In this document: one piece after another, positions 8,108 through 35,626 of the stretch
How the letters are laid out: every line of letters begins with the position of its first letter
How positions within the stretch are numbered: position 1 is the first letter of the stretch
Source: Acidobacteriota bacterium
GTDB lineage: Bacteria > Acidobacteriota > Vicinamibacteria > Vicinamibacterales > UBA2999
Reading direction: 5' to 3'
DNA length: 64,000 bases
Assembly: GCA_030650395.1 (NCBI GenBank)
Contig: JAUSDY010000063.1
Location: forward strand, 6,855 to 70,854
Notes under the pieces: model-generated
The model's database searches: none
What the model was told of the DNA's origin: nothing
What the model saw: only the letters and a program-made list of their open reading frames with translations
Program-made: the position numbers and the translations under genes

Positions 8108-8384
8108 CTATCGCCGTTTCTTCTTCGGCTTGGGCTTGGGCTTGGCTGTCGTTTTTGTCCTCGTCTTGGGCTCTGGCTTGGCGCCCTTGGATTGCGGCTT
8201 TGCCGCAAGCACATCCTGTAGCTCATAGGCCTTGTTGTGGGGACAAACCTTTAGGTTTGTCCTTGACCGGAGCGATGCGCGGCGGAACCGCTTTGAGGAT
8301 GTGTCTGCGCGCGGTGGTATACCGCTCGCCGGTCTTGGCGGCGCGATCGCGAATCAGTTGCTTGAGGGCTCGGGCGCGGGTCAT
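8108..8384 (-). pseudogene. Small basic protein gene split by a 22-nt hairpin element
   Basis: ATG 8384 gives MTRARALKQLIRDRAAKTGERYTTARRHILKAVPPRIAPVKDKPKGLSPQQGL* (stop 8223). Deleting GGACAAACCTAAAGGTTTGTCC joins it in frame to ...NHNKAYELQDVLAAKPQSKGAKPEPKTRTKTTAKPKPKPKKKRR* (stop 8108). Confidence 0.4.
8237..8262 (+). repeat. GTRG-hairpin micro-element A1 (GACAAACC subfamily)
   Basis: GTGG GGACAAACC TTTA GGTTTGTCC; interrupts the small ORF 8108..8384. Confidence 0.85.
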
Positions 8385-8550
8385 AACGGTCCTTCTCTGG
8401 CCACACCACCCCCAGCCCCCGCCTGCTGGCCGCGCGACCGTGAAGAACCCACGTTATTCAGCCCGAGGTGTGGACCCCTTTGCCTCGATCGCAGCCCCGC
8501 GGGGGGAGGCCATGTCGAGGTGAGGCGCCAGGCCAGCGCCAGTCCAAATA

Positions 8551-8586
8551 CTAACAGGAGGTCAGGAGACCAGGAGGAACTTCTTC
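8551..8586 (+). repeat. D-type element D1 (one arm only)
   Basis: CTAACAGGAGGTCAGGAGACCAGGAGGAACTTCTTC; matches the arm and tail of D3. Confidence 0.6.
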
Positions 8587-8589
8587 ATC

Positions 8590-8621
8590 CAAGCCCCCAA
8601 GCCCTCAAGCCCTCAAGCCCT
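8590..8621. repeat. Tandem octamer CAAGCCC(C/T), 4 copies
   Basis: Read directly; 20 nt upstream of the 2Fe-2S subunit start. Confidence 0.8.
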
Positions 8622-8640
8622 CGGGAGTATCATTCCCGGC

Positions 8641-9117
8641 ATGGCCACCATCAATCTGCGGGTGAACGGCAAGGCGCATACGGTTGACGTGGAGCCTTCC
8701 ACTCCCCTGCTCTATGTCCTGCGAAACGATCTGGATTTGTCGGGGCCGCGCTTCGGCTGTGGGCTGGGGCAGTGCGGTGCCTGCACCGTCTTGATCAGGG
8801 GCGAAGCGGTGCGGTCGTGCATCCGCCCGGTGTCGCAGGTGCAGGGCGCTGAAATCACCACGCTCGAAGGCCTCGCGCAAAACGGCAAGCTCCATCCGGT
8901 GCAGCAGGCATGGATCGACGAACAGGTCCCGCAGTGCGGCTTCTGCCAGAACGGGCAAATCCTCACCGCGAAGGTGCTGCTCGACAAGACCCCGAACCCG
9001 ACCGACGCGCAAATCCGCGAGGGCATGCAAGGCGCGTTGTGCCGCTGCATGACGTATTACCGCGTGCAGAAGGCCGTGCGGCTTGCGGCCGACACGATGA
9101 AGGGAGAACGCGCATGA
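8641..9117 (+). CDS. [2Fe-2S]-binding small subunit of a molybdenum hydroxylase (IorA/aldehyde oxidoreductase type)
   Basis: 158 aa; CGLGQCGAC and CGFCQNG...CRC cluster motifs. Confidence 0.9.
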   Translation: MATINLRVNGKAHTVDVEPSTPLLYVLRNDLDLSGPRFGCGLGQCGACTVLIRGEAVRSCIRPVSQVQGAEITTLEGLAQNGKLHPVQQAWIDEQVPQCGFCQNGQILTAKVLLDKTPNPTDAQIREGMQGALCRCMTYYRVQKAVRLAADTMKGERA

Positions 9118-11477
9118 GCTCCCGGCGCGACTTCATCAAATCGTCGGGCATGCTCGTCGTCGGGATTGCAGCGACGAACTCGCTTGCGGATGCATTCGTA
9201 GGGCCCCCCTTTATGGGGGGCCAAAATGCTGCGGGCCCGTATCCCGATCCCGATTTCCACCAGCTCGACTCCTGGATCGTCATCCGCCAGGACAACACCG
9301 CGACGTTCTTCGTCGGCAAGACCGATCTCGGCCAGGGCACCGGCACGGCGTTCCGCCAGATCATGTGCGACGAGCTCGACATCGCGTACGACAAGACCAG
9401 CTGCGTGATGGGCAGCACGCACAACACCGTCGATCAAGGCGGGTCCGGCGGATCCGATGCGTTGCAGACGGATGGCTATCCGATGCGCCGCGTCGCCGCC
9501 GAAGCCCGGCGTGTGTTGCTCGAGATGGGAGCGACCCATTTCGGCGTTCCCGTGTCTGCCCTCGCTGTGAGCGACGGTGTGATCTCCGTGCGTAGAGGCG
9601 GGTCTTTAGACCCGCCTACGCGTGGCGACAAACCTTTAGGTTTGTCGATCACCTACGGCGACCTGATCGGCGGCAGGAAGTTCAACGTCACGTTGACCGG
9701 CCGCAACACCGATGCGACCACGGGCGTTGCGCCGCTCAAGCCGGTGCAGGAGATGAAGAACGTCGGCAAGTCGCCGCAGCGCTACGACATTCCCGCCAAG
9801 GTTGAAGGCTCGCTGAAGTGGGCGGTGGACGTAAAGGCTCCGGGAATGGTCCACGCGCGCAACGTCAAGCCGCCGGTCGCCGGCGCCACGCTCGTCAGCA
9901 TCGACGAAGCGTCGGTGCGCGGGATTCCGGGGTTCATCACAGTGGTGAGCAAAGGCAACTACGTTGCGGTGGTGTGCGAGCGCGAGGAGCAGGCGATCCG
10001 CGCGGCGAGGCAGATCAAGGTCGACTGGAAGAAGCCGGCAACGGCGCCCTTCCCTGCTTCCGACGATCTGTTCACGTACATGCGCGCGGCGTCGCCCTCG
10101 TCTACTGGTAAACCAACTGAAATCGGCGCGACCGATGCCTCGTTCGCCAGTGCGGCCACGGTGATCGAAGCCGAGTACGACGTGCCGTTCCAGGGCCACA
10201 CCGCGATCGGCCCGGCGCATGCGATGGCCGATCCGTCGAACGATCAGCTCACCATCTACACCAACGACATGAAGTCGTACGGCATGCGCAACGGCGTCGC
10301 CGAGTTCCTCAAGATGCCGCGCGACCGCGTCCGCGTCGTCTGGATGGAAGGGCCGCAAGGCTACGGCCGCACCGCGGCGGACGATGCGGGGTTTGAGGCG
10401 GCGTATCTGGCAAAGGAGATCGGCCGTCCGGTGCGGGTGCAGTGGAGCCGGCAGGAAGAAACGGCGTGGGACACCAAGGGTCCGGCGTATGCGTTCAAGA
10501 TGCGCGGCGGCCTCGATGCCCAGGGCAACGTCGTCGCGCTCCACTACGACGCGTGCGCTGCAGATCACAATCATCTTGGCTACAACGAACACGAGACTGT
10601 TCTGATCTCGCAGCTGATGGGCATCCGGAAAGCGACGCCCTCGCCCGGACGTGCGTCGCTGCCGTCGGACATGTACGTGATTCCGAACCGCAAGCAGACG
10701 ACGAGGGTGGTGCCGCTGCCGATGCCGTTCGAGACGCCTCTTCGTACCGGCAACCTGCGCGACCCCGATGGTCCGCAGGTAACGTTTGCGGCGGAGAGCT
10801 TCATCGACGAGCTCGCCGTCGCGGCGAAGGCGGACCCGGTGGCGTTCCGCTTGAAGATGTTGCAGGCGAGCACGGGCGACGACAGCGGCTTCAAGCGCGC
10901 GCGCTCGATCGTGTGCATCAAGGCGGCGGCGGAGAAGTTCGGCTGGGACCCGCGCCCTTCACCGAAGGTGCCAGTTGGTGGAGACAAACCTTTAGGTTTG
11001 TCTGAAGATATTCTCACCGGCCGCGGCATCGCGTATGCGTACCGCAGTCAGACCGTGGTCGCCGAGATCGCCGAGGTCGAGGTCAATCGCAAGACCGGCC
11101 GCGTCTGGGTGAAGCGCCTGGTGATCGCGCACGACTGCGGGCTGGTGATCAACCCGGCCGCGCTCACGCGCGTGATCGAGTGCGGCGCGCTTTATGGTCT
11201 GAGCCGGGCGCTCCACGAGGAAGTGAAGTTCGACACCGAGAAGGTCACGAGCGTGGACTGGGTGACGCATCCGACGCTGACGCATGCGGATACGCCGGAG
11301 CGAATCGATGTGGTGCTGGTGAATGGGGACCCGAACCCGAACCGGCCCGACCTGCAGCACTACGGCGCCGGCGAGACGATGTGCAAGCCGATGCTGGCGG
11401 CGGTGGCGAACGCGGTATTTGATGCGACGGGAACCCGCTTGAGACGCATACCCCTTAGCCTCCCGCGTCCTGTTTGA
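9114..11477 (+). CDS. Molybdopterin-binding large subunit (IorB/aldehyde oxidoreductase type), Tat-exported
   Basis: ATGA overlap with the small subunit; twin-arginine signal SRRDFIKSSG; 787 aa; carries four hairpin inserts (see repeats). Confidence 0.9.
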   Translation: MSSRRDFIKSSGMLVVGIAATNSLADAFVGPPFMGGQNAAGPYPDPDFHQLDSWIVIRQDNTATFFVGKTDLGQGTGTAFRQIMCDELDIAYDKTSCVMGSTHNTVDQGGSGGSDALQTDGYPMRRVAAEARRVLLEMGATHFGVPVSALAVSDGVISVRRGGSLDPPTRGDKPLGLSITYGDLIGGRKFNVTLTGRNTDATTGVAPLKPVQEMKNVGKSPQRYDIPAKVEGSLKWAVDVKAPGMVHARNVKPPVAGATLVSIDEASVRGIPGFITVVSKGNYVAVVCEREEQAIRAARQIKVDWKKPATAPFPASDDLFTYMRAASPSSTGKPTEIGATDASFASAATVIEAEYDVPFQGHTAIGPAHAMADPSNDQLTIYTNDMKSYGMRNGVAEFLKMPRDRVRVVWMEGPQGYGRTAADDAGFEAAYLAKEIGRPVRVQWSRQEETAWDTKGPAYAFKMRGGLDAQGNVVALHYDACAADHNHLGYNEHETVLISQLMGIRKATPSPGRASLPSDMYVIPNRKQTTRVVPLPMPFETPLRTGNLRDPDGPQVTFAAESFIDELAVAAKADPVAFRLKMLQASTGDDSGFKRARSIVCIKAAAEKFGWDPRPSPKVPVGGDKPLGLSEDILTGRGIAYAYRSQTVVAEIAEVEVNRKTGRVWVKRLVIAHDCGLVINPAALTRVIECGALYGLSRALHEEVKFDTEKVTSVDWVTHPTLTHADTPERIDVVLVNGDPNPNRPDLQHYGAGETMCKPMLAAVANAVFDATGTRLRRIPLSLPRPV
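9198..9222 (+). repeat. GTAG-hairpin micro-element A2
   Basis: GTAG GGCCCCCC TTTAT GGGGGGCC; in frame in the Mo-oxidoreductase gene (encodes VGPPFMGG). Confidence 0.85.
9592..9619 (+). repeat. GTAG-hairpin micro-element A3
   Basis: GTAG AGGCGGGTC TTTA GACCCGCCT AC; a GTAG box on both strands; encodes RRGGSLDPPT. Confidence 0.85.
9622..9647 (+). repeat. GTRG-hairpin micro-element A4 (GACAAACC subfamily)
   Basis: GTGG CGACAAACC TTTA GGTTTGTCG, 2 nt after A3; encodes GDKPLGLS. Confidence 0.85.
10978..11003 (+). repeat. GTRG-hairpin micro-element A5 (GACAAACC subfamily)
   Basis: GTGG AGACAAACC TTTA GGTTTGTCT; same frame as A4, again encodes GDKPLGLS. Confidence 0.85.
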
Positions 11478-12051: not shown

Positions 12052-12107
12052 AACAGGAACTCAGAAGATCAGGAGAAAGTTTTCTCCTGATCTCGTGGAC
12101 TCCTGTT
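12052..12107. terminator. D-type long hairpin D2 downstream of the PEGA gene
   Basis: AACAGGA actcagaa GATCAGGAGAAA gt TTTCTCCTGATC tcgtggac TCCTGTT; outer 7-bp and inner 12-bp stems; 13 nt after the PEGA stop. Confidence 0.6.
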
Positions 12108-13105: not shown

Positions 13106-13651
13106 ATGCCTCACCCCGGCACCCCTAAAAGGGGTGCCCTACCGCCGCTGCGCGATCGGATCCGGCCGGGCGTGCGCGTGCTCTTCGTCGGCATCAACCC
13201 CGGCATCCGGTCGTCGCAGACCGGCCATCACTTCGCCGGCCCGTCGAATCGGTTCTGGCTATTGCTGTATGCGTCGGGGCTCGTTCCCGAGCGGCTCACG
13301 TTGGAGCATGACGATCGGTTGCCTGAGTTCCGGTTCGGCATCACCAACATCGTTGCGCGGCCGACGCCCGGCATCGATACGCTGACGCCGGCCGAGTACG
13401 TCGAGGGCCGCCTCAAGCTGCGCCGGAAGATTCTGAAGAACAAGCCGAAGGTCGTGGCGATGGTCGGCGTGACGGTGTTCCGCGCGATGTTTCCCGGGCG
13501 GAAAGACGCGGTGACCCTCGGAATTCAATCCGAGCGAATCGGAGAAACGGCGGTCTTCGTGTTGCCCAATCCAAGCGGACGCAATGCCAACTTCACCTGC
13601 GCGGAAATGCTGGCGGCGTTTCGCGGGTTGCGACGCTACCTGGTCAGGTAG
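13106..13651 (+). CDS. mug: G/U mismatch-specific uracil-DNA glycosylase
   Basis: Colinear by eye with E. coli Mug as I remember it: VLFVGINPG, GHHFAGPSNRFW, NIVARPT, VLPNPSGRN; first 20 aa include a hairpin element. Confidence 0.85.
   Translation: MPHPGTPKRGALPPLRDRIRPGVRVLFVGINPGIRSSQTGHHFAGPSNRFWLLLYASGLVPERLTLEHDDRLPEFRFGITNIVARPTPGIDTLTPAEYVEGRLKLRRKILKNKPKVVAMVGVTVFRAMFPGRKDAVTLGIQSERIGETAVFVLPNPSGRNANFTCAEMLAAFRGLRRYLVR
13118..13142 (-). repeat. GTAG-hairpin micro-element A6
   Basis: + strand GGCACCCC TAAAA GGGGTGCC CTAC; in frame in the mug N-terminus (GTPKRGALP). Confidence 0.85.
13636..13651. repeat. 16-bp palindrome CTACCTG-gt-CAGGTAG forming the whole mug/gltD overlap
   Basis: Both convergent genes terminate in it (TAG on each strand); the proteins end ..YLVR* and ..YLTR*. 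Confidence 0.8.
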
Positions 13652-15084
13652 TGATCAATGGCAGCGGCCGCGCGCCGGCCGTCGTCAATCGCCCAGACGA
13701 TAAGCGACTGACCTCGCTGCATGTCGCCGGCAGCAAAGACACCGGGAACGCTCGTCATCCATTGCTCATCGCGCGCGACGGTGCCGCGGTCGTTGATGCG
13801 AACATCGAGCTCGGCCAGCAATCGGCTCTTCTCGGGGCCGACGAACCCCATCGCAAGCAGCACGAGATCGGCTTTCATTTCGAACGCGCTGTTTGCAACA
13901 GGCTCGAAACTGACGCGGCCACCAGAGACGGTGCGCTCGACGCGGTGGCCGTGGAGCATGCGGACGTGTCCGCTGTCATCGCCAGTGAGCTCTGTAGTGG
14001 CAACGGCGTAGACGCGATCGCCGCCTTCTTCGTGCGCCGGCGACGTGCGAAAGACGTTCGGCCATAACGGCCACGGATTGTCGGCCGCTCGTTCCTGCGG
14101 AGGCGTGGGCAACAATTCGAGCTGGCTCACCGATGCCGCGCCCTGGCGATGCACGGTGCCAAGGCAATCCGCGCCGGTGTCGCCGCCGCCGATGATGATG
14201 ACGTGTTTGCCTTCGGCCCAAAGGGCATTAGCGGAGCTAAAGCTCCGCTCTACGGCACCGTTGTCGAGGTCATCGCCCTGGCAGCGGCGGTTTTGCTGGG
14301 TCAGGTATGGCATCGCGAAGTGGACGCCGTCGAGACCGCGGCCGGGCACGTTGAGATCGCGCGGCTGGCCCGCGCCGCCGGCAAGAAGAACCGCGTCGAA
14401 GTCACGCTGCAGGTCCTGGGCCGTCACGTCCACGCCGACATCGACGCGCGTCCGGAACACCACGCCCTCGGCCGCCAGCAGATCGAGGCGGCGATCGAGC
14501 ACGCGCTTTTCCATCTTGAACTCGGGAATGCCGTAGCGCAGCAGCCCGCCAACGCGATCTGACTTCTCGAACACGGTCACGCTGTGGCCAGCGGCGTTGA
14601 GCTGCGCGGCCGCCGCGAGGCCGGCCGGTCCCGAGCCGACGATGGCCACTTTCTTCCAGGTGCGCGTCGGCGGCGGCTGCGGAACGATCCACTCTTCGTC
14701 GAACGCGCGATCGACAATGGCGAGCTCGATTGACTTGATGGTGACGGGATCCTTATTGATCCCCAGCACGCACGATCCTTCGCACGGCGCCGGACACAGC
14801 AGGCCCGTGAACTCAGGAAAGTTGTTGGTCTGGTGCAGGCGCTCGATCGCCGCTCGCCACGAATCGCGGTAGACCAGATCGTTCCAGTCGGGGATGAGGT
14901 TGCCGAGCGGGCAGCCTTGGTGACAGAACGGGATGCCGCAGTCCATGCAGCGCGCGGCCTGGCGCGTCAGGTCCTCGACCGGATAGGCCTTGTAGACGTG
15001 CCGATAGTCGCCAATACGTTCGGCAATGGGTCTGGAGGGCTGTTTCACCCTCGAGAACTCTATGAAACCTGTGGCTTTACCCAT
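13636..15084 (-). CDS. gltD: Glutamate synthase (NADPH) small subunit
   Basis: 482 aa; CMDCGIPFC...CPLGN Fe-S motifs; GSGPAGLAAA dinucleotide fold; directly downstream of gltB. Confidence 0.95.
   Translation of the reverse strand: MGKATGFIEFSRVKQPSRPIAERIGDYRHVYKAYPVEDLTRQAARCMDCGIPFCHQGCPLGNLIPDWNDLVYRDSWRAAIERLHQTNNFPEFTGLLCPAPCEGSCVLGINKDPVTIKSIELAIVDRAFDEEWIVPQPPPTRTWKKVAIVGSGPAGLAAAAQLNAAGHSVTVFEKSDRVGGLLRYGIPEFKMEKRVLDRRLDLLAAEGVVFRTRVDVGVDVTAQDLQRDFDAVLLAGGAGQPRDLNVPGRGLDGVHFAMPYLTQQNRRCQGDDLDNGAVERSFSSANALWAEGKHVIIIGGGDTGADCLGTVHRQGAASVSQLELLPTPPQERAADNPWPLWPNVFRTSPAHEEGGDRVYAVATTELTGDDSGHVRMLHGHRVERTVSGGRVSFEPVANSAFEMKADLVLLAMGFVGPEKSRLLAELDVRINDRGTVARDEQWMTSVPGVFAAGDMQRGQSLIVWAIDDGRRAAAAIDHYLTR
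14231..14253 (-). repeat. GTAG-hairpin micro-element A7
   Basis: + strand GCGGAGC TAAA GCTCCGC TCTAC; in frame in gltD (VERSFSSA). Confidence 0.85.
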
Positions 15085-15122: not shown

Positions 15123-19763
<4,641 letters not shown>

Positions 19764-19768
19764 GGCGA

Positions 19769-19793
19769 TCTCTCTGGGGACCTATTAGAGAGA
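19769..19793 (-). promoter_or_regulatory. 5'-UTR hairpin immediately upstream of the gltB start
   Basis: mRNA sense UCUCUCU-aauaggucccc-AGAGAGA, 5 nt before AUG; the purine arm is the only SD-like sequence there. Confidence 0.25.
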
Positions 19794-25369: not shown

Positions 25370-26731
25370 ATGTCTTCCGCCAGCTCGGCGCCGCCGAGTG
25401 AATCGCTGGTCCGCGCGATCGGCACGTTCGGGCTCGCCGCCGGGATCATCAACATCACGATCGGCGGCGGCATCTTCCGCCTGCCTGCGAACGTGGCTGA
25501 ATCGCTCGGCGCCGCGGCGCCGATCGCCTATCTCGTCTGCGCCGTTGCGATGGGTTTGATCGTGCTGTGCATCGCCGACGCGGGCAGCCGGGTCTCGCTC
25601 ACCGGCGGGCCGTACGCCTACGTCGGCACGGCGTTCGGGCCGTATGCCGGCTTCATCTCGGGCGTGCTGTTATGGATGCTCGGCACATTCGCGACTGCCG
25701 CGGTGTCAACGGTGCTGGCCTCGAGCCTTGGGCTGCTGATGCCGGCCCTGGCCGGCCGCACGATGGAGATCGCGATCCTGGTGGTCGCCTACGGTTTCTG
25801 GTCGCTCATCAACCTGCGCGGGGTCACACTCGGCGTGCGGCTCAATTCGATCGCGACGGTGGCGAAGCTGCTGCCGCTGTTGCTGGTGGCAATCGGCGGA
25901 GCGTTCTTCGTGCAGAGCGAGAACCTGCGCATCGTGTCGATGCCCGCGGCGGCGGACGTCGCTCGCACCTCACTGCTGTTGATCTTCGCCTTCGCGGGGA
26001 TCGAATGCGCGCTCGTGCCGAGCGGCGAAGTGCGCGACACCGCGCGCACGGTTCCGCGCGCGATCGCGCTTGCCATGCTCGGCATCACCGCGCTCTACGT
26101 GGCGCTGCAAGTGGTGGCGCAGGGCATTCTTGGCAGCGGCCTCGCGCACGCCACCGTGTCGCCGCTCGCCGACGCCGCCGGCGCTTCACTCGGCGGCTGG
26201 GCACGCTCACTCTTGCTCGCCGGTGCGACCGTCTCGATGTTCGGCTACCTGGGCGGCATGACGCTCTCGATGCCGCGAATGCTGTTCGCACTCGCCCGCG
26301 ACGGCTTCCTGCCGCGCGCGCTGGCGTCGGTGCACCCGGTGCATCGCTCACCCCAGGCCGCCATCATCGCGCAGTCGCTTCTCGCGCTCGTGTTGGCCAT
26401 CTCCGGCACGTTCGAGAAACTCGCCATCCTCGCCAACGTCTCGGCGCTGGCGCTGTATTTCGGCTGCGCGCTGGCGTCGTGGCGGCTTCGTCAGCTCGGC
26501 GTGAGCGGCCCTTCGACTCGTTCCCGCCCCTTTCGGGGCGGGACCTCGCTCAGGGCAGGCGACGTGGTGCCATGGCTGGCGTGCGCCGTGATCGTGTGGC
26601 TGCTTACCGGCCTGACGCGCGACGAGTGGCTCGGCTTCGGCGTGTGCCTTGCGGCCGGAACGCTGGTGTATTTCTTGGCACGTTCGCGGAAGTTTAGTTC
26701 CGCGATCGACAGCAATAGAATGCAGGGATGA
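25370..26731 (+). CDS. APC-superfamily amino acid permease
   Basis: 453 aa, about 12 hydrophobic segments; C-terminal tail carries two repeat inserts. Confidence 0.85.
   Translation: MSSASSAPPSESLVRAIGTFGLAAGIINITIGGGIFRLPANVAESLGAAAPIAYLVCAVAMGLIVLCIADAGSRVSLTGGPYAYVGTAFGPYAGFISGVLLWMLGTFATAAVSTVLASSLGLLMPALAGRTMEIAILVVAYGFWSLINLRGVTLGVRLNSIATVAKLLPLLLVAIGGAFFVQSENLRIVSMPAAADVARTSLLLIFAFAGIECALVPSGEVRDTARTVPRAIALAMLGITALYVALQVVAQGILGSGLAHATVSPLADAAGASLGGWARSLLLAGATVSMFGYLGGMTLSMPRMLFALARDGFLPRALASVHPVHRSPQAAIIAQSLLALVLAISGTFEKLAILANVSALALYFGCALASWRLRQLGVSGPSTRSRPFRGGTSLRAGDVVPWLACAVIVWLLTGLTRDEWLGFGVCLAAGTLVYFLARSRKFSSAIDSNRMQG
26509..26561 (+). repeat. 53-nt composite GC-rich element B1
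   Basis: CCCTTCGACTCG tt CCCGCCCC tttc GGGGCGGG ACCTCGCTCAGGGCAGGCG; in frame in the permease (GPSTRSRPFRGGTSLRAG). Confidence 0.8.
26685..26704. repeat. Hairpin micro-element A10 (CGCGGAA subfamily, degenerate GTAG box)
   Basis: CGCGGAA GTTTAG TTCCGCG; in frame in the permease tail (SRKFSSA). Confidence 0.7.
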
Positions 26732-27717
26732 CTTCAACGCTCCCGATCCTGAAGACCGAGGATGTGCTGGAGGCCCTGCGCGGCCTCAGGACACGCCAGC
26801 CGGTCAAATACTGGGCTTTTTACTCCAGCCAGCTCGGTGGCATCGTCACCGACCCGGCGCTGATGGTGTTGCCGTTCGACGACCACATGGTCCATCGCGG
26901 GCACGGCATCTTCGACACCGCGGCGATCGTCGGCGGCAAGCTTTACGACCTCGACGCTCACCTCGACCGCTTCATCGCATCGGCCGAGCGTTCCAAGCTT
27001 CGCTTGCCGGGCACGCGCCAGCAAATGCGCGACATCATCATGGCCACCGCCGCTGCCAGCGGCAAACCCGACGGCGGCATCCGCTACTGGCTTTCATCCG
27101 GGCCCGGCAGTCTCGATCTCACCCCGGCCGCCGGCGCGGATCCCGGGTTCTTCGTCATGATCTTCGCCGGCCTCTCGTACCCCGAACGTTGGTACAACGA
27201 GGGGCTCAAGGTGATGACGACGACGTACCCGATCAAGCCGGCGCTCTACGCGATCACCAAAAGCACGAACTATCTGCCCAACGTGCTGATGCAGATGGAA
27301 GCGAAAGAAGTCGGTCTCGATAACGGCGTCTTCATCGACAAGGACGGCTTCATCGGCGAGAGCTCGAACATGAACGTGGCGTTCGTCACGCAGGACGGCG
27401 TGTTCCGCCATCCGAAGTTCGATCAGATCCTGTCGGGCTGCACGTCCAAGCGGCTGCTCGAGCTCGCGCCCCGATTGGTGGAGCGCGGTCTCATCAAAGG
27501 CGTTGAGGTCTGCGACATCCCGGTCGCCGACGCGCGCGCCGCGCGGGAGATGATGCTGTTCGGCAGCTCGATCAAGGTGGCGCCGATCGTCGAGTGGGAC
27601 AAGAAGCCGATCCACGACGGCAAGCCCGGACCGGTATCGAAGGCGCTACTCGAGCTGCTCGAGGAAGACATGCGGACGACGAGTCAGGGCCGGCTGGTCG
27701 ATCTGGGCACCCCATAA
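26728..27717 (+). CDS. Class IV (fold-type IV) aminotransferase
   Basis: 329 aa; HRGHGIFDT, NYLPNVLMQMEAKEVG, ESSNMNVAFV motifs; ATGA overlap with the permease; stop codon lies in a hairpin loop. Confidence 0.85.
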   Translation: MTSTLPILKTEDVLEALRGLRTRQPVKYWAFYSSQLGGIVTDPALMVLPFDDHMVHRGHGIFDTAAIVGGKLYDLDAHLDRFIASAERSKLRLPGTRQQMRDIIMATAAASGKPDGGIRYWLSSGPGSLDLTPAAGADPGFFVMIFAGLSYPERWYNEGLKVMTTTYPIKPALYAITKSTNYLPNVLMQMEAKEVGLDNGVFIDKDGFIGESSNMNVAFVTQDGVFRHPKFDQILSGCTSKRLLELAPRLVERGLIKGVEVCDIPVADARAAREMMLFGSSIKVAPIVEWDKKPIHDGKPGPVSKALLELLEEDMRTTSQGRLVDLGTP

Positions 27718-27730
27718 AGGGGTGCCCTAC
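27706..27730 (-). repeat. GTAG-hairpin micro-element A12
   Basis: + strand GGCACCCC ATAAA GGGGTGCC CTAC; the loop TAA (27715-27717) is the aminotransferase stop codon. Confidence 0.85.
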
Positions 27731-31451: not shown

Positions 31452-31475
31452 GTAGCGCGGAACTTTAGTTCCGCG
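31452..31475 (+). repeat. GTAG-hairpin micro-element A11
   Basis: GTAG CGCGGAAC TTTA GTTCCGCG; the complement of loop positions 31465-31467 is the ArsR stop TAA. Confidence 0.85.
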
Positions 31476-31854
31476 GTTTGCAGAAACTCGCGTCAGTCCT
31501 GTTGCCCTTCTCGACAAACCCCTTCAAGCGGCCGAGTGCCTCGTCCCACTGGCACGACATCTGCTCGAGAAAACGACGCGCTTCGTCCAGCCGGTCGGCC
31601 TCGACGTTCCAGATGCGCTCCCGTCCCAGCCTGGCGCTGCGGACGAGTCCGGCGGCGCCGAGAACCTGCAGATGCTTCGTAATGGCCTGCCGGGTCACTG
31701 CGGCCCCCGCGGCCAGCTGGGCGATCGAATGGGGGCCCGCCGAACCAAGACGCAGGACCAGCGCGAGCCGCGTTTCGTCGCCAAGGGCGGCGAAGAGGGG
31801 CGCGGCATGCGCGAAGCCGGCAGGCTTGACAGCCCGGCGCGGCTTGCGGCTCAA
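31465..31854 (-). CDS. ArsR/SmtB-family transcriptional regulator
   Basis: LFAALGDETRLALVLRL...HSIAQLAAGAAVTRQAITKHLQVLGAAGLV winged HTH; TTG start overlapping the upstream stop (cgTTGAgc); stop codon lies in a hairpin loop. Confidence 0.8.
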   Translation of the reverse strand: MSRKPRRAVKPAGFAHAAPLFAALGDETRLALVLRLGSAGPHSIAQLAAGAAVTRQAITKHLQVLGAAGLVRSARLGRERIWNVEADRLDEARRFLEQMSCQWDEALGRLKGFVEKGNRTDASFCKPRN

Positions 31855-33767: not shown

Positions 33768-35546
33768 ATGAAGAACCTCAGCCTTCGGACAAACCTAAAG
33801 GTTTGTCCCCACATCGTGACGCTCGTCCTGATGGGGGGCGCCCTGCTGTCGGCGCGCCAACTGCAACCGCCGCCCCCGCCGGTAGCGGCACCGATGCCTG
33901 CGCTGCTGAAGAGCTACACGGCAGTCACGGCCGAACGGTTGAAGAGTCCAGCAGACGCGGACTGGCTGATGATTCGGCGCAGCTACGACGGGTGGGGCTA
34001 CAGCCCGCTCGATCAGATCACGCCGGCCAACATCTCCCGGCTGCAGCCGGCGTGGGTGTTTTCAACCGGCGTGAACAGCGGGCACGAGGCGCCGCCGATC
34101 GTCAACAACGGCGTGATGTTCGTCTCGACGCCGGGTCACCGCGTCACCGCCCTCGATGCCAGGACCGGTGTGATGCTGTGGCGCTACATCAAGGAAGTCG
34201 CCGATCCGATCGTCGCACCGCATCCCACGACGCGCGGCATCGCGCTCTACGGCGACAAGGTGTTCTTCGCCGCCAACGATGCGGTGCTGGTCGCGCTCGA
34301 CGCCAGGACCGGCACGCAGCTGTGGACCGCCACCGTCGCCGACAACAAGAGCGGCTACTACATGACGCTGGCGCCGCTCGTCGCCGACGGCAAGGTGATG
34401 GTCGGCGTGTCGGGAGGCGAGCTCGGGGTGCGCGGCTTCATCGCCGCCTACGATCCCGACAGCGGCAAGCAAGTGTGGAAGACCTACACCGTGCCCGCGC
34501 CCGGTGAGCCAGGCAGCGAGACGTGGCCGAACGGCAACCAGTGGAGAACCGGCGGCGCACCGGTGTGGGTCACCGGCAATTACGATCCGCAAACCAATCT
34601 CGCCTTCTGGGGCACCGGCAACGGTGGACCGTGGATGGGCGATCAGCGGCCCGGCGACAATCTCTATACCGCGTCGGTCGTCGCCGTCGATGCCGCCACC
34701 GGGCGCATCAAAGGCCACCATCAATATCATCCGAACGATTCGTGGGATTGGGACGAGGTCTCGCCGCCGATCCTGGTCGATTACCAGCGTAACGGCCGCA
34801 CCATCAAGGGCCTGATCGACGTCGCGCGTAACGGCTATCTGTGGTTCCTGGAGCGCACCGACGGCGCGATCAACTTCGTCGAAGGCACGCCGTTCGTCAG
34901 GCAGAACGTGTTCAGGAGCCTTGACCCGAAGACCGGACGGCCCGACGTGGATCCGGCGCGCAAGCCCGGCACCGGCAAGACCGCGGATTTCTGCCCGTCA
35001 CATTGGGGCGGCAAGAACTGGCCGCCGATTGCGTACAGCCCGAAGACGCGGCTGATCTACATCCCCGCCAACGAGAACCTGTGCGGCACGCTGGTCGGCC
35101 GTGACGTCGCGTACACGCCAGGCAGCGGCTATACCGGCGCGACGAGCACATTGGTCATCACCCCCGGCGCCGACCATATCGGCGAAGTGCAAGCGTGGAA
35201 CGTCGACACCGGCAAGCGAGTGTGGACGCACAATTATCCGAAGTCGGCGAACTGGGGACCGATGCTCGCCACCGGCGGCGGGCTCGCATTTACCGGCGGT
35301 ACCAACGATCGGATGTTTCACGCGTTCGACGCGTCGACCGGCAAGCTGTTGTGGGAGTTTCCAACCAACTCCGGCATCACCGGCCAGCCTTCGTCGTTCA
35401 TGGTCGACGGCAAGCAGTACATCGCCGTGATGTCGGGCTGGGGCGTCGACGCCAGGGCGGTGCAGCTCCGGCTCAACCGGTTGATGCCGGGTGATTACCC
35501 GGAGGTGCCCGAGGGCGGGGCGATCTGGGTCTTCGCGATCAAATAA
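33768..35546 (+). CDS. PQQ-dependent alcohol dehydrogenase (methanol/ethanol family)
   Basis: Eight-bladed quinoprotein pattern (repeated ALDARTG..LW / A.D..TGK..W motifs); NDSWDWDE active-site segment; signal-peptide region contains a hairpin element; ATG 33768 preferred to GTG 33759. Confidence 0.88.
   Translation: MKNLSLRTNLKVCPHIVTLVLMGGALLSARQLQPPPPPVAAPMPALLKSYTAVTAERLKSPADADWLMIRRSYDGWGYSPLDQITPANISRLQPAWVFSTGVNSGHEAPPIVNNGVMFVSTPGHRVTALDARTGVMLWRYIKEVADPIVAPHPTTRGIALYGDKVFFAANDAVLVALDARTGTQLWTATVADNKSGYYMTLAPLVADGKVMVGVSGGELGVRGFIAAYDPDSGKQVWKTYTVPAPGEPGSETWPNGNQWRTGGAPVWVTGNYDPQTNLAFWGTGNGGPWMGDQRPGDNLYTASVVAVDAATGRIKGHHQYHPNDSWDWDEVSPPILVDYQRNGRTIKGLIDVARNGYLWFLERTDGAINFVEGTPFVRQNVFRSLDPKTGRPDVDPARKPGTGKTADFCPSHWGGKNWPPIAYSPKTRLIYIPANENLCGTLVGRDVAYTPGSGYTGATSTLVITPGADHIGEVQAWNVDTGKRVWTHNYPKSANWGPMLATGGGLAFTGGTNDRMFHAFDASTGKLLWEFPTNSGITGQPSSFMVDGKQYIAVMSGWGVDARAVQLRLNRLMPGDYPEVPEGGAIWVFAIK
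33787..33812 (-). repeat. GTRG-hairpin micro-element A14 (GACAAACC subfamily)
   Basis: + strand GGACAAACC TAAA GGTTTGTCC CCAC; in frame in the n-region of the PQQ-ADH signal peptide (RTNLKVCPH). Confidence 0.85.
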
Positions 35547-35626
35547 CAGGAGGCCAGGAGGTCAGGAGAAAATATTTCTCCTGACCTCCTGAACTCCTGT
35601 TTGGTTTTCTTCTGGTCTCCTGTTAG
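35545..35626. terminator. D-type long hairpin D3 plus tail, between convergent genes
   Basis: 27-nt arms, 25/27 paired: AACAGGAGGCCAGGAGGTCAGGAGAAA ata TTTCTCCTGACCTCCTGAACTCCTGTT, then GGTTTTCTTCTGGTCTCCTGTTAG; both flanking stop codons lie in TAACAGGAG motifs. Confidence 0.7.

Follow-up and report, generated by a model that had tools for sequence, protein, structure and literature searches.

Probable RAYT-associated REP elements in length-tolerant segments of an IorB-like molybdenum hydroxylase gene from Vicinamibacterales

Introduction

How can the gene of a conserved enzyme carry four DNA hairpins inside its reading frame? This question is raised by a stretch of 64,000 nucleotides from an Acidobacteriota bacterium of the order Vicinamibacterales (contig JAUSDY010000063.1), hereafter called the 64-kb window, in which an IorB-like gene for the large subunit of a molybdenum hydroxylase contains the short hairpins A2, A3, A4, and A5 at three sites (Table 1). 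The answer reached here, which we hold with considerable confidence, is that A2-A5 are repetitive extragenic palindromic (REP) elements associated with REP-associated tyrosine transposases (RAYTs), and that they are tolerated in length-permissive segments and loop-friendly frames of a functional enzyme.

Results

Architecture of the hairpins

The four hairpins are present where the original prediction had placed them, all with perfect stems. Folding of A2-A5 as single-stranded DNA gives energies of -7.7 to -12.4 kcal/mol, with z-scores from -2.8 to -5.8, the closing pair of A5 being an unusual A-T. The same inserts are found in independent JGI, ENA, and NCBI assemblies, which rules out an assembly artefact.

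Across the window there are 12 hairpins of this class, and GTAG or GTGG stands directly 5' of the stem in every one (12/12; REPs of this class may have 0-2 nt between head and hairpin). When the stem is set to at least 8 bp and the loop to TTTA, TTTAT, or TTTTA, 11 perfect hairpins are obtained, all with the GT[AG]G head (11/11), compared with none in 200 dinucleotide-preserving shuffles of the window; therefore, a chance origin is excluded. The major stem families are GACAAACC, GGCGGGTC, GGCCCCCC/GGCRCCCC, and CGCGGAAC.

The repeated unit has about 26 nt, formed by the GT[AG]G head, one base, a hairpin core of 20-21 nt (a 7-8 bp stem with a TTTA or TTTAT loop), and a base complementary to the one after the head. 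Counted over the full stem, pairing is perfect for 8-9 bp and the loops measure 4-5 nt, inside the ranges used for REPs (stem of 7-20 bp, loop of 2-5 nt). To delimit the unit, metagenome contigs were scanned with the 20-nt hairpin of A4/A5 alone, leaving out the head, and at least 120 matches were obtained. Among the matches listed there are 100 distinct sites, with GTGG (75) or GTAG (16) exactly one base upstream in 91 of them. Also, in 107 high-GC copies, the head positions are each 94-98% conserved, and because conservation stops abruptly at -6 and +2, the REP unit is taken as 26 nt. The elements of the window fit REPs as defined in the literature, with the GT[AG]G head lying 0-1 nt from a stem-loop (PMC6006769; PMC3733652). 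A2-A5 thus very probably belong to the REP elements of the GTAG/GTGG-tagged class.

A miniature inverted-repeat transposable element was considered and ruled out, given that the element is a single 26-nt hairpin with no terminal repeats and no target duplication at filled-versus-empty comparisons. At gathering thresholds, Rfam gives no match at the hairpins; its only match in the window is a tRNA gene at 2468-2538 on the minus strand.

RAYT genes flanked by the same families in relatives

No RAYT gene is present within the 64-kb window, and E. coli RayT has no match in the window or in 86 orthologous loci (1.47 Mb), the RAYTs having emerged only with the metagenome loci. For example, the metagenome locus L151 encodes a 165-residue Y1_Tnp protein (PF01797) that matches E. 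coli RayT at 1e-8, contains the HVH, WQ, and YVVLNP motifs, and has GACAAACC REPs on both sides of its gene in inverted orientation. The homologues of this protein include Vicinamibacterales proteins from metagenome-assembled genomes (MAGs) that NCBI names REP-associated tyrosine transposase. Moreover, L208, a Vicinamibacterales MAG, has upstream of its RAYT gene a REP that corresponds exactly to A4, from the GTGG head through the hairpin to the three bases that follow (ATC), and the downstream REP is an inverted copy of the upstream one. In L209, the RAYT gene has four REPs upstream and six downstream. More diverged RAYTs come with stem families of their own, which are GGCAAGCC in L210, GGCAACCC in L211, and GTAG-AGGCGGACC-TTCA in L212, this last being close to the A3 family. 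The arrangement called REPtron, a RAYT gene flanked by the same REPs, is therefore found in the relatives L151, L208, L209, L210, L211, and L212. Because the same families flank RAYT genes in relatives, the elements of the window are assigned to RAYT-associated REP families; together with the GT[AG]G head and the stem/loop architecture, this agrees with the original view of the inserts as REP-like mobile hairpins.

The RAYTs of L151 and L208-L212 share 42-85% identity, and their REP stems differ by paired substitutions, while head (GT[AG]G) and loop (TT[TC]A) are retained. Also, an unrelated low-GC organism (L098:6700-7520) has a RAYT flanked by GTAG-GGACAGACC-TTTA, one base pair off the GACAAACC stem, and many of the GTAG-headed metagenome matches listed come from low-GC organisms like this one.

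The host enzyme and its three insertion sites

The IorB-like reading frame is uninterrupted for 787 codons, a claim of the original prediction that translation bears out. The product is recognized as a molybdenum hydroxylase large subunit by its MoCoBD_1 and MoCoBD_2 domains, by the adjoining 2Fe-2S gene, whose 3' end overlaps the start of the large-subunit gene, and by an N-terminal twin-arginine motif, SRRDF, which suggests a twin-arginine translocation (Tat) signal. Directly upstream of the small-subunit gene there is a tandem heptamer, (CAAGCCC)x4, at ~8590-8622. A protein with 100% identity to it is encoded in an Acidobacteriota MAG, and it has 5138 homologues, its nearest named relatives being Vicinamibacterales. 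The nearest solved structure is the large subunit of an aldehyde dehydrogenase, 8GY3_C, matched over residues 49-781 (2e-45).

The ratio of nonsynonymous to synonymous substitution rates (dN/dS) between the window gene and six orthologues is 0.12-0.17, and that of orthologue pairs without the window gene is 0.09-0.20. Since the former values lie within the range of the other pairs, the gene is under normal purifying selection and is not decaying, and the relaxed selection once proposed as an explanation of the inserts is not borne out. An alignment of 34 homologues at 81-94% identity contains several hundred invariant columns, conserved blocks of the Mo-cofactor domains included. The C-terminal tail of the window protein is unlike that of its orthologues.

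At site 1, a variable stretch that separates the N-terminal RRDF motif from the conserved GPYPDPDF block, A2 encodes VGPPFMGG. At site 2, A3 encodes RRGGSLDPP and A4, placed head to tail with it, encodes RGDKPLGLS. At site 3, a linker before the TGRGIAY strand, A5 encodes GGDKPLGLS. In orthologues at 70-94% identity, length varies only at these three sites and at the termini, and in none of the orthologues examined, among them 86 orthologous DNA loci, is a REP found at another position of the gene. Orthologues identified by search number 532. The base state of site 3 is a 9-residue linker (KPRGSGDVL-like), and that of site 2 comprises 10-13 residues. L001 and L002 retain the ancestral 9-residue site-3 linker, KPRGSGxVL, and L002 (P0004) and the similar P0005 and P0006 carry none of the inserts.

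The same sites are occupied by other families elsewhere. Site 3 is taken by at least four stem families across lineages, as illustrated by AGCCGGGTC in L011, GCCGGGC in L068, two copies of GACAAACC in L005, and GGCAACCC (GGNPLGLP) in L006, where this family is found at site 1 as well. In L004, sites 1 and 2 hold an A3-type copy, and the A2 family recurs at 16009 in the window and in L006 and L012. Site 3 of L006 (11860-11960) holds four tandem 24-nt REP-derived units (GGGNPxGx), with a good hairpin only in the last, and site 3 of L061 has a tandem repeat of the RAG/TAG type.

In the alignment with 8GY3_C, the segments encoded by A3 and A4 face gaps, and the linker at the A5 site is much shorter in that structure. 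An AlphaFold2 model built from a 35-sequence alignment has a mean predicted local distance difference test (pLDDT) score of 47, too poor for a fold search, and is less confident at 163-175 and 615-630 than in the strands and helices on either side. Taken with the indel pattern, these data support that the three sites are probably dispensable, length-tolerant segments. The suggestion that the inserts lie in dispensable loops thus withstood the comparison with a characterized homologue that had been proposed to check it, the segments coinciding with gaps or a variable linker of the alignment.

Reading frames, junctions, and history of the inserts

Relative to the empty site, A2 and A5 each bring a net change of +24 nt; A3 adds 18 nt relative to L001, and A4 adds 9 nt relative to the 13-residue state. 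A 26-nt unit alone cannot go in frame. Neighbouring host codons are replaced at every junction, and no target duplication is observed.

The frames available depend on the family. GTAG families whose loop region reads CTTTAG have TAG in two frames and a single open sense frame, and the GTGG family has four stop-free frames over both orientations. Among the matches listed, the 16 internal coding copies of the A4/A5 family all read either GDKPLGLS (8, sense) or DKPKGLSP (8, antisense). The frames WRQTFRFV and TNLKVCRH are used by 0 of the 16 internal coding copies listed, the frames containing Trp, Phe, or Cys being found only at the ends of open reading frames (ORFs). If all four frames were equally likely, this restriction to two would have a probability of ~1.5e-5, and it fits a selection for peptides suited to loops. 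A4 and A5 share GDKPLGLS because only the two Gly/Pro/Lys-rich frames survive internally. The common frame and peptide claimed originally are thus borne out by translation; they reflect a selection filter and do not show that both elements landed in the same way.

A comparison with close relatives reveals a patchy distribution. A2 and A4 are common to the window and L001, a 94% identical orthologue; A3 is missing from L001, and an A3-type copy occupies the same site in L004; A5, in the same variant and with the same flanks, is present in L003 and is absent from L001 and L002. The sliding identity between the window and L001 is 0.94-0.99 over 9150-10500; around A5, over 10578-11000, it is only 0.80-0.89, and the window is nearer to L002 and L003. 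This mosaic of identity over the segment 10550-11050 suggests that homologous recombination between strains moves REP-bearing segments. The four independent insertions assumed originally are thus too simple an account, considering the copies shared with L001, L003, and L004, the codons replaced at the junctions, and the mosaic around A5.

The A3-A4 pair

The heads of A3 and A4 both lie on the coding strand, with their starts 30 nt apart and a gap of 4 nt between the elements. The two belong to different REP families, and each occurs alone, A4 in L001 and an A3-type copy in L004. Their junction has a single occurrence in 2.3 Mb of related DNA, where the search for the doublet elsewhere, which the original prediction had proposed, found none. 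Because of the same-strand heads, the different families, and the unique junction, A3+A4 is a head-to-tail pair and not the inverted doublet of a REP doublet forming hairpin (REPIN), so that the resemblance to REPINs or bacterial interspersed mosaic elements (BIMEs) noted earlier is not sustained. Neighbouring REPs of one family mostly form direct arrays with a spacing of 30-40 nt beside RAYT genes, and inverted doublets are present in more distant Vicinamibacterales loci, for example in L037, L050, and L065, at intergenic positions.

Other REPs and repeats of the window

Twelve copies per 64 kb correspond to roughly 1000 per 5-Mb genome by extrapolation from one window. About half of the window copies lie within coding sequence; at least 6 of the 12 (7 counting A2) are coding-internal, all of them in sense orientation. 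The extragenic location that gives REPs their name does not hold for A2-A5 and at least three further copies, which are in frame inside ORFs. For comparison, 2 of 48 REPs are gene-internal in 1.12 Mb of distant orthologous loci, and 20 of 102 among the high-GC metagenome matches listed, in equal numbers per orientation (10:10). The metagenome orientation counts were redone on loci with a GC content of at least 0.6, given that a criterion based on GC content at third codon positions fails in low-GC organisms such as that of L098. On the basis of one 64-kb window, the source lineage appears REP-rich and unusually tolerant of intragenic copies.

Table 1. Position and composition of the REP elements in the window and of the two molybdenum hydroxylase subunit genes
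Feature	Coordinates	Strand	Composition and context
REP A1	8237-8262 (also listed at 8241)	+	GTGG + GGACAAACC/TTTA; upstream of operon, outside main coding ORFs
2Fe-2S small subunit (IorA-like)	8641-9117	+	Pfam Fer2_2 (4.7e-28), Fer2
IorB-like molybdenum hydroxylase large subunit, 787 aa	9114-11477	+	Translation; Pfam MoCoBD_1 and MoCoBD_2
REP A2	9198-9222	+	GTAG 9198-9201, stem GGCCCCCC 9202-9209, loop TTTAT, stem GGGGGGCC 9215-9222
REP A3	9592-9617	+	GTAG 9592-9595, stem AGGCGGGTC 9596-9604, loop TTTA, stem GACCCGCCT 9609-9617
REP A4	9622-9647	+	GTGG 9622-9625, stem CGACAAACC 9626-9634, loop TTTA, stem GGTTTGTCG 9639-9647
REP A5	10978-11003	+	GTGG 10978-10981, stem AGACAAACC 10982-10990, loop TTTA, stem GGTTTGTCT 10995-11003
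REP	13118-13142	-	GTAG + GGCACCCC/TTTTA; N-terminal region of UDG-like ORF or just upstream
REP	14230-14253	-	GTAG + AGCGGAGC/TTTA; in frame, gltD-like gene
REP	16009-16033	-	GTAG + GGCGCCCC/TTTAT, A2-like; in frame, gltB-like gene
REP	17322-17345	-	GTAG + CGTGGAAC/TTTA; in frame, gltB-like gene
REP	27705-27730	-	GTAG + GGCACCCC/TTTAT; loop gives stop codon of ORF 26719-27717
REP	31452-31477 (also listed at 31454)	+	GTAG + CGCGGAAC/TTTA; intergenic
REP	33787-33812	-	GTGG + GGACAAACC/TTTA; 5' end of PQQ-dehydrogenase-like ORF

The gltD-like (13636-15084, minus strand) and gltB-like (15123-19781, minus strand) genes have in-frame sense REPs, with encoded peptides that include VAWNFSSA. The peptides of the three REPs in these genes align to gaps or variable linkers of glutamate synthase (GOGAT) structures (7MFM, 2VDC, and 1EA0). 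The REP at 27705-27730 supplies the TAA stop of an aminotransferase class IV-like ORF, whose final residues, LGTP, are REP-encoded. The antisense REPs at 33787-33812 and 13118-13142 fall in the first ~40 codons of ORFs similar to a pyrroloquinoline quinone (PQQ) dehydrogenase, with the reading RTNLKVCPH, and to UDG/MUG, respectively, and their translation hinges on the true start codons.

An amino-acid-permease-like ORF has the hairpins GTTCCCGCCCC/TTTC/GGGGCGGGACC and TCGCGGAA/GTTTAG/TTCCGCGA in its C-terminal part, at 26520-26545 and 26684-26705; neither shows a clear GT[AG]G head, and both may have arisen from REPs by decay. Another, unrelated family of palindromes, made of CAGGAG-like units, is present at 8540-8580, 12066-12093, and 35547-35612. 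One of its palindromes (35555-35591) has perfect arms of 17 bp (CAGGAGGTCAGGAGAAA/ATA/...) and lies between convergent genes; it could act as a bidirectional terminator or represent a further family of repeats.

Discussion

The scenario proposed for A2-A5 is as follows. In Vicinamibacterales, the elements accompany genes for REP-associated tyrosine (HUH/Y1) transposases, each flanked by a REP family of its own; these transposases would presumably mobilize REPs in single-stranded form, and RAYT-mediated mobilization probably operated in the genome of the window as well. Landings in coding DNA would normally be lost. Those in the IorB-like gene may have persisted, first, because three segments appear to tolerate length change, namely the N-terminal one before GPYPDPDF (residues 28-36), a hairpin loop at ~160-178, and the linker before TGRGIAY at ~618-632. 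Second, small gains or losses of flanking bases would bring the net change to a multiple of three, in a surviving frame that is free of stops and encodes peptides rich in Gly, Pro, Asp, Lys, and Ser, suited to loops. The enzyme would remain functional, with the REPs translated as loop extensions that are probably exposed at the surface. Finally, the patchy distribution among close relatives could come from repeated insertion at the same permissive sites together with homologous recombination between strains.

Several observations weigh against this scenario. No pair of empty and filled sites shows a clean 26-nt insertion, the flanking codons being replaced in every case. The coding-internal REPs of the window, 6 or 7 in number, are all sense, which is not obviously predicted by chance plus a frame filter; among the wider metagenome matches listed, the orientations are 8:8 or 10:10. 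The cognate transposase is known only from relatives of the window. Moreover, with an AlphaFold model of such low confidence, the placement of the inserts in surface loops comes mainly from the indel patterns and the 8GY3 alignment.

The sense orientation bears on a broader proposal, according to which REP insertion into coding DNA would be, in this freshwater/soil lineage, a regular, RAYT-driven source of loop variation and not just a rare accident. REPs would home to a few permissive loops of highly conserved enzymes (the IorB-like protein, GltB, and GltD), or be kept there preferentially, in sense orientation, with the hairpins perhaps playing a second role in the mRNA. We regard this as unlikely. 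If true, intragenic REPs would no longer count as tolerated junk; they would be a means, particular to this lineage, by which proteins and their expression evolve, and the second role could be local translational pausing or transcript stabilization.

Alternatively, the hairpins could be selected cis-elements in mRNA or DNA, such as pause sites for Tat export or cofactor assembly, RNase or stability determinants, or gyrase/IHF sites. The repeated occupation of the three sites by different stem families in different lineages would be expected from such a function, as would stems that vary by paired substitutions around a fixed loop and head, and the sense orientation of the coding-internal window copies points the same way. 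Nonetheless, many close orthologues have no insert at all and the same dN/dS, and the same elements are found in intergenic DNA, in either orientation, within unrelated genes, and next to RAYT genes. Orientation is unbiased in the metagenome sample (8:8 among the matches listed), and the recurrent sites are the only indel-tolerant segments, so that a selection filter suffices. A role as cis-elements is therefore judged very unlikely.

It could also be argued that the elements spread without a dedicated transposase, by recombination or gene conversion, template switching at hairpins, or slippage, with the RAYT link being incidental. The untidy junctions, with replaced flanking codons and no target duplication, are compatible with this idea; the tandem 24-nt units of L006 and a partial duplication in L004 are typical of slippage, and the mosaic identity points to recombination carrying REP segments between strains. 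However, the RAYT genes found, five of them counted as independent, are each flanked by a matching inverted stem family, and the strict GT[AG]G head with its sharp element boundary is the signature of recognition by a protein. Structural work on E. coli RayT describes contacts between the protein and the GT[AG]G head (quoted in PMC6006769). On this balance, a spread without transposase seems most unlikely. Lastly, a decaying pseudogene under relaxed selection that collects junk insertions, for which one could invoke the unusual number of four inserts in a 2.4-kb gene and the divergent C-terminal tail, is rejected by the dN/dS values, and the intact ORF, the invariant Mo-cofactor-domain blocks, and the in-frame REPs of the gltB-like and gltD-like genes leave it next to no chance.

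The RAYT-associated REPs described here extend the REP/RAYT system to Vicinamibacterales, abundant Acidobacteriota of soil and freshwater with few cultured representatives. The paired RAYT and REP families, with their co-varying stems, would be useful for studying how the transposases recognize hairpins and how RAYTs and REPs co-evolve. The locus is also a natural example of a 26-nt element that survives in conserved enzymes only in indel-tolerant loops and loop-friendly frames. This would account for many short Gly/Pro-rich length differences between orthologues in these MAGs, such as GDKPLGLS, GGNPLGLP, RRGGSLDPP, and GPPFMGG, and for annotation it is a warning that such segments are scars of mobile elements and not functional motifs. 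General REP biology is unchanged by the finding.

Comparison with known systems

Among enzymes, the large subunit of a membrane-bound aldehyde dehydrogenase (8GY3, chain C) and the IorB/PaoC-type molybdenum hydroxylases are the nearest to the window protein with its MoCoBD_1 and MoCoBD_2 domains; the solved protein differs from it at the inserts described above.

Rickettsia palindromic elements (RPEs; Ogata et al. 2000) are mobile elements said to lie in frame in genes of conserved proteins and to add translated segments to the surface of the host protein, which keeps its function. We know of no documented link between these elements and RAYTs. A2-A5 resemble them in this in-frame, translated behaviour and are set apart by description and size: RPE-1 has ~100-150 bp, and the shorter RPE-4 and RPE-6 are CGTC-tagged (PMC3733652).

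The closest systems are the REPtrons of GTAG-REPs and RAYTs. The likeness comprises the GT[AG]G head, which precedes a 7-9 bp stem by 0-1 nt, the loop of 4-5 nt, a number of dispersed copies that is probably large, the coexistence of several stem families, and RAYTs flanked by inverted REPs. This literature includes Quentin 2018 (PMC6006769) and reportedly also Nunvar 2010 and Ton-Hoang/Messing 2012. Inverted REP doublets, that is REPINs or BIMEs, were reportedly treated by Bertels and Rainey (2011); they share the same kind of REP unit, whereas A3+A4 is no such doublet replicating as a whole.

For intragenic copies, Di Nocera et al. (2013) described GTAG and CGTC REPs inside genes and in frame, variants with a GTGG head, an ORF with two insertions, stop codons provided by REPs, and orthologous recB genes in which different REPs occupy roughly the same position (PMC3733652). 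No paper devoted to REPs in Vicinamibacteria emerged from a literature search. The event type is thus known from other bacteria, and this lineage is a newly described host. With respect to known REPtrons, the Vicinamibacterales host and the stem families with a TT[TC]A loop are new; further differences are the coding location of about half of the REPs in the window and the repeated use of three segments of one protein by at least four stem families from different lineages, with four REPs in one gene standing at the upper end of the reported range.

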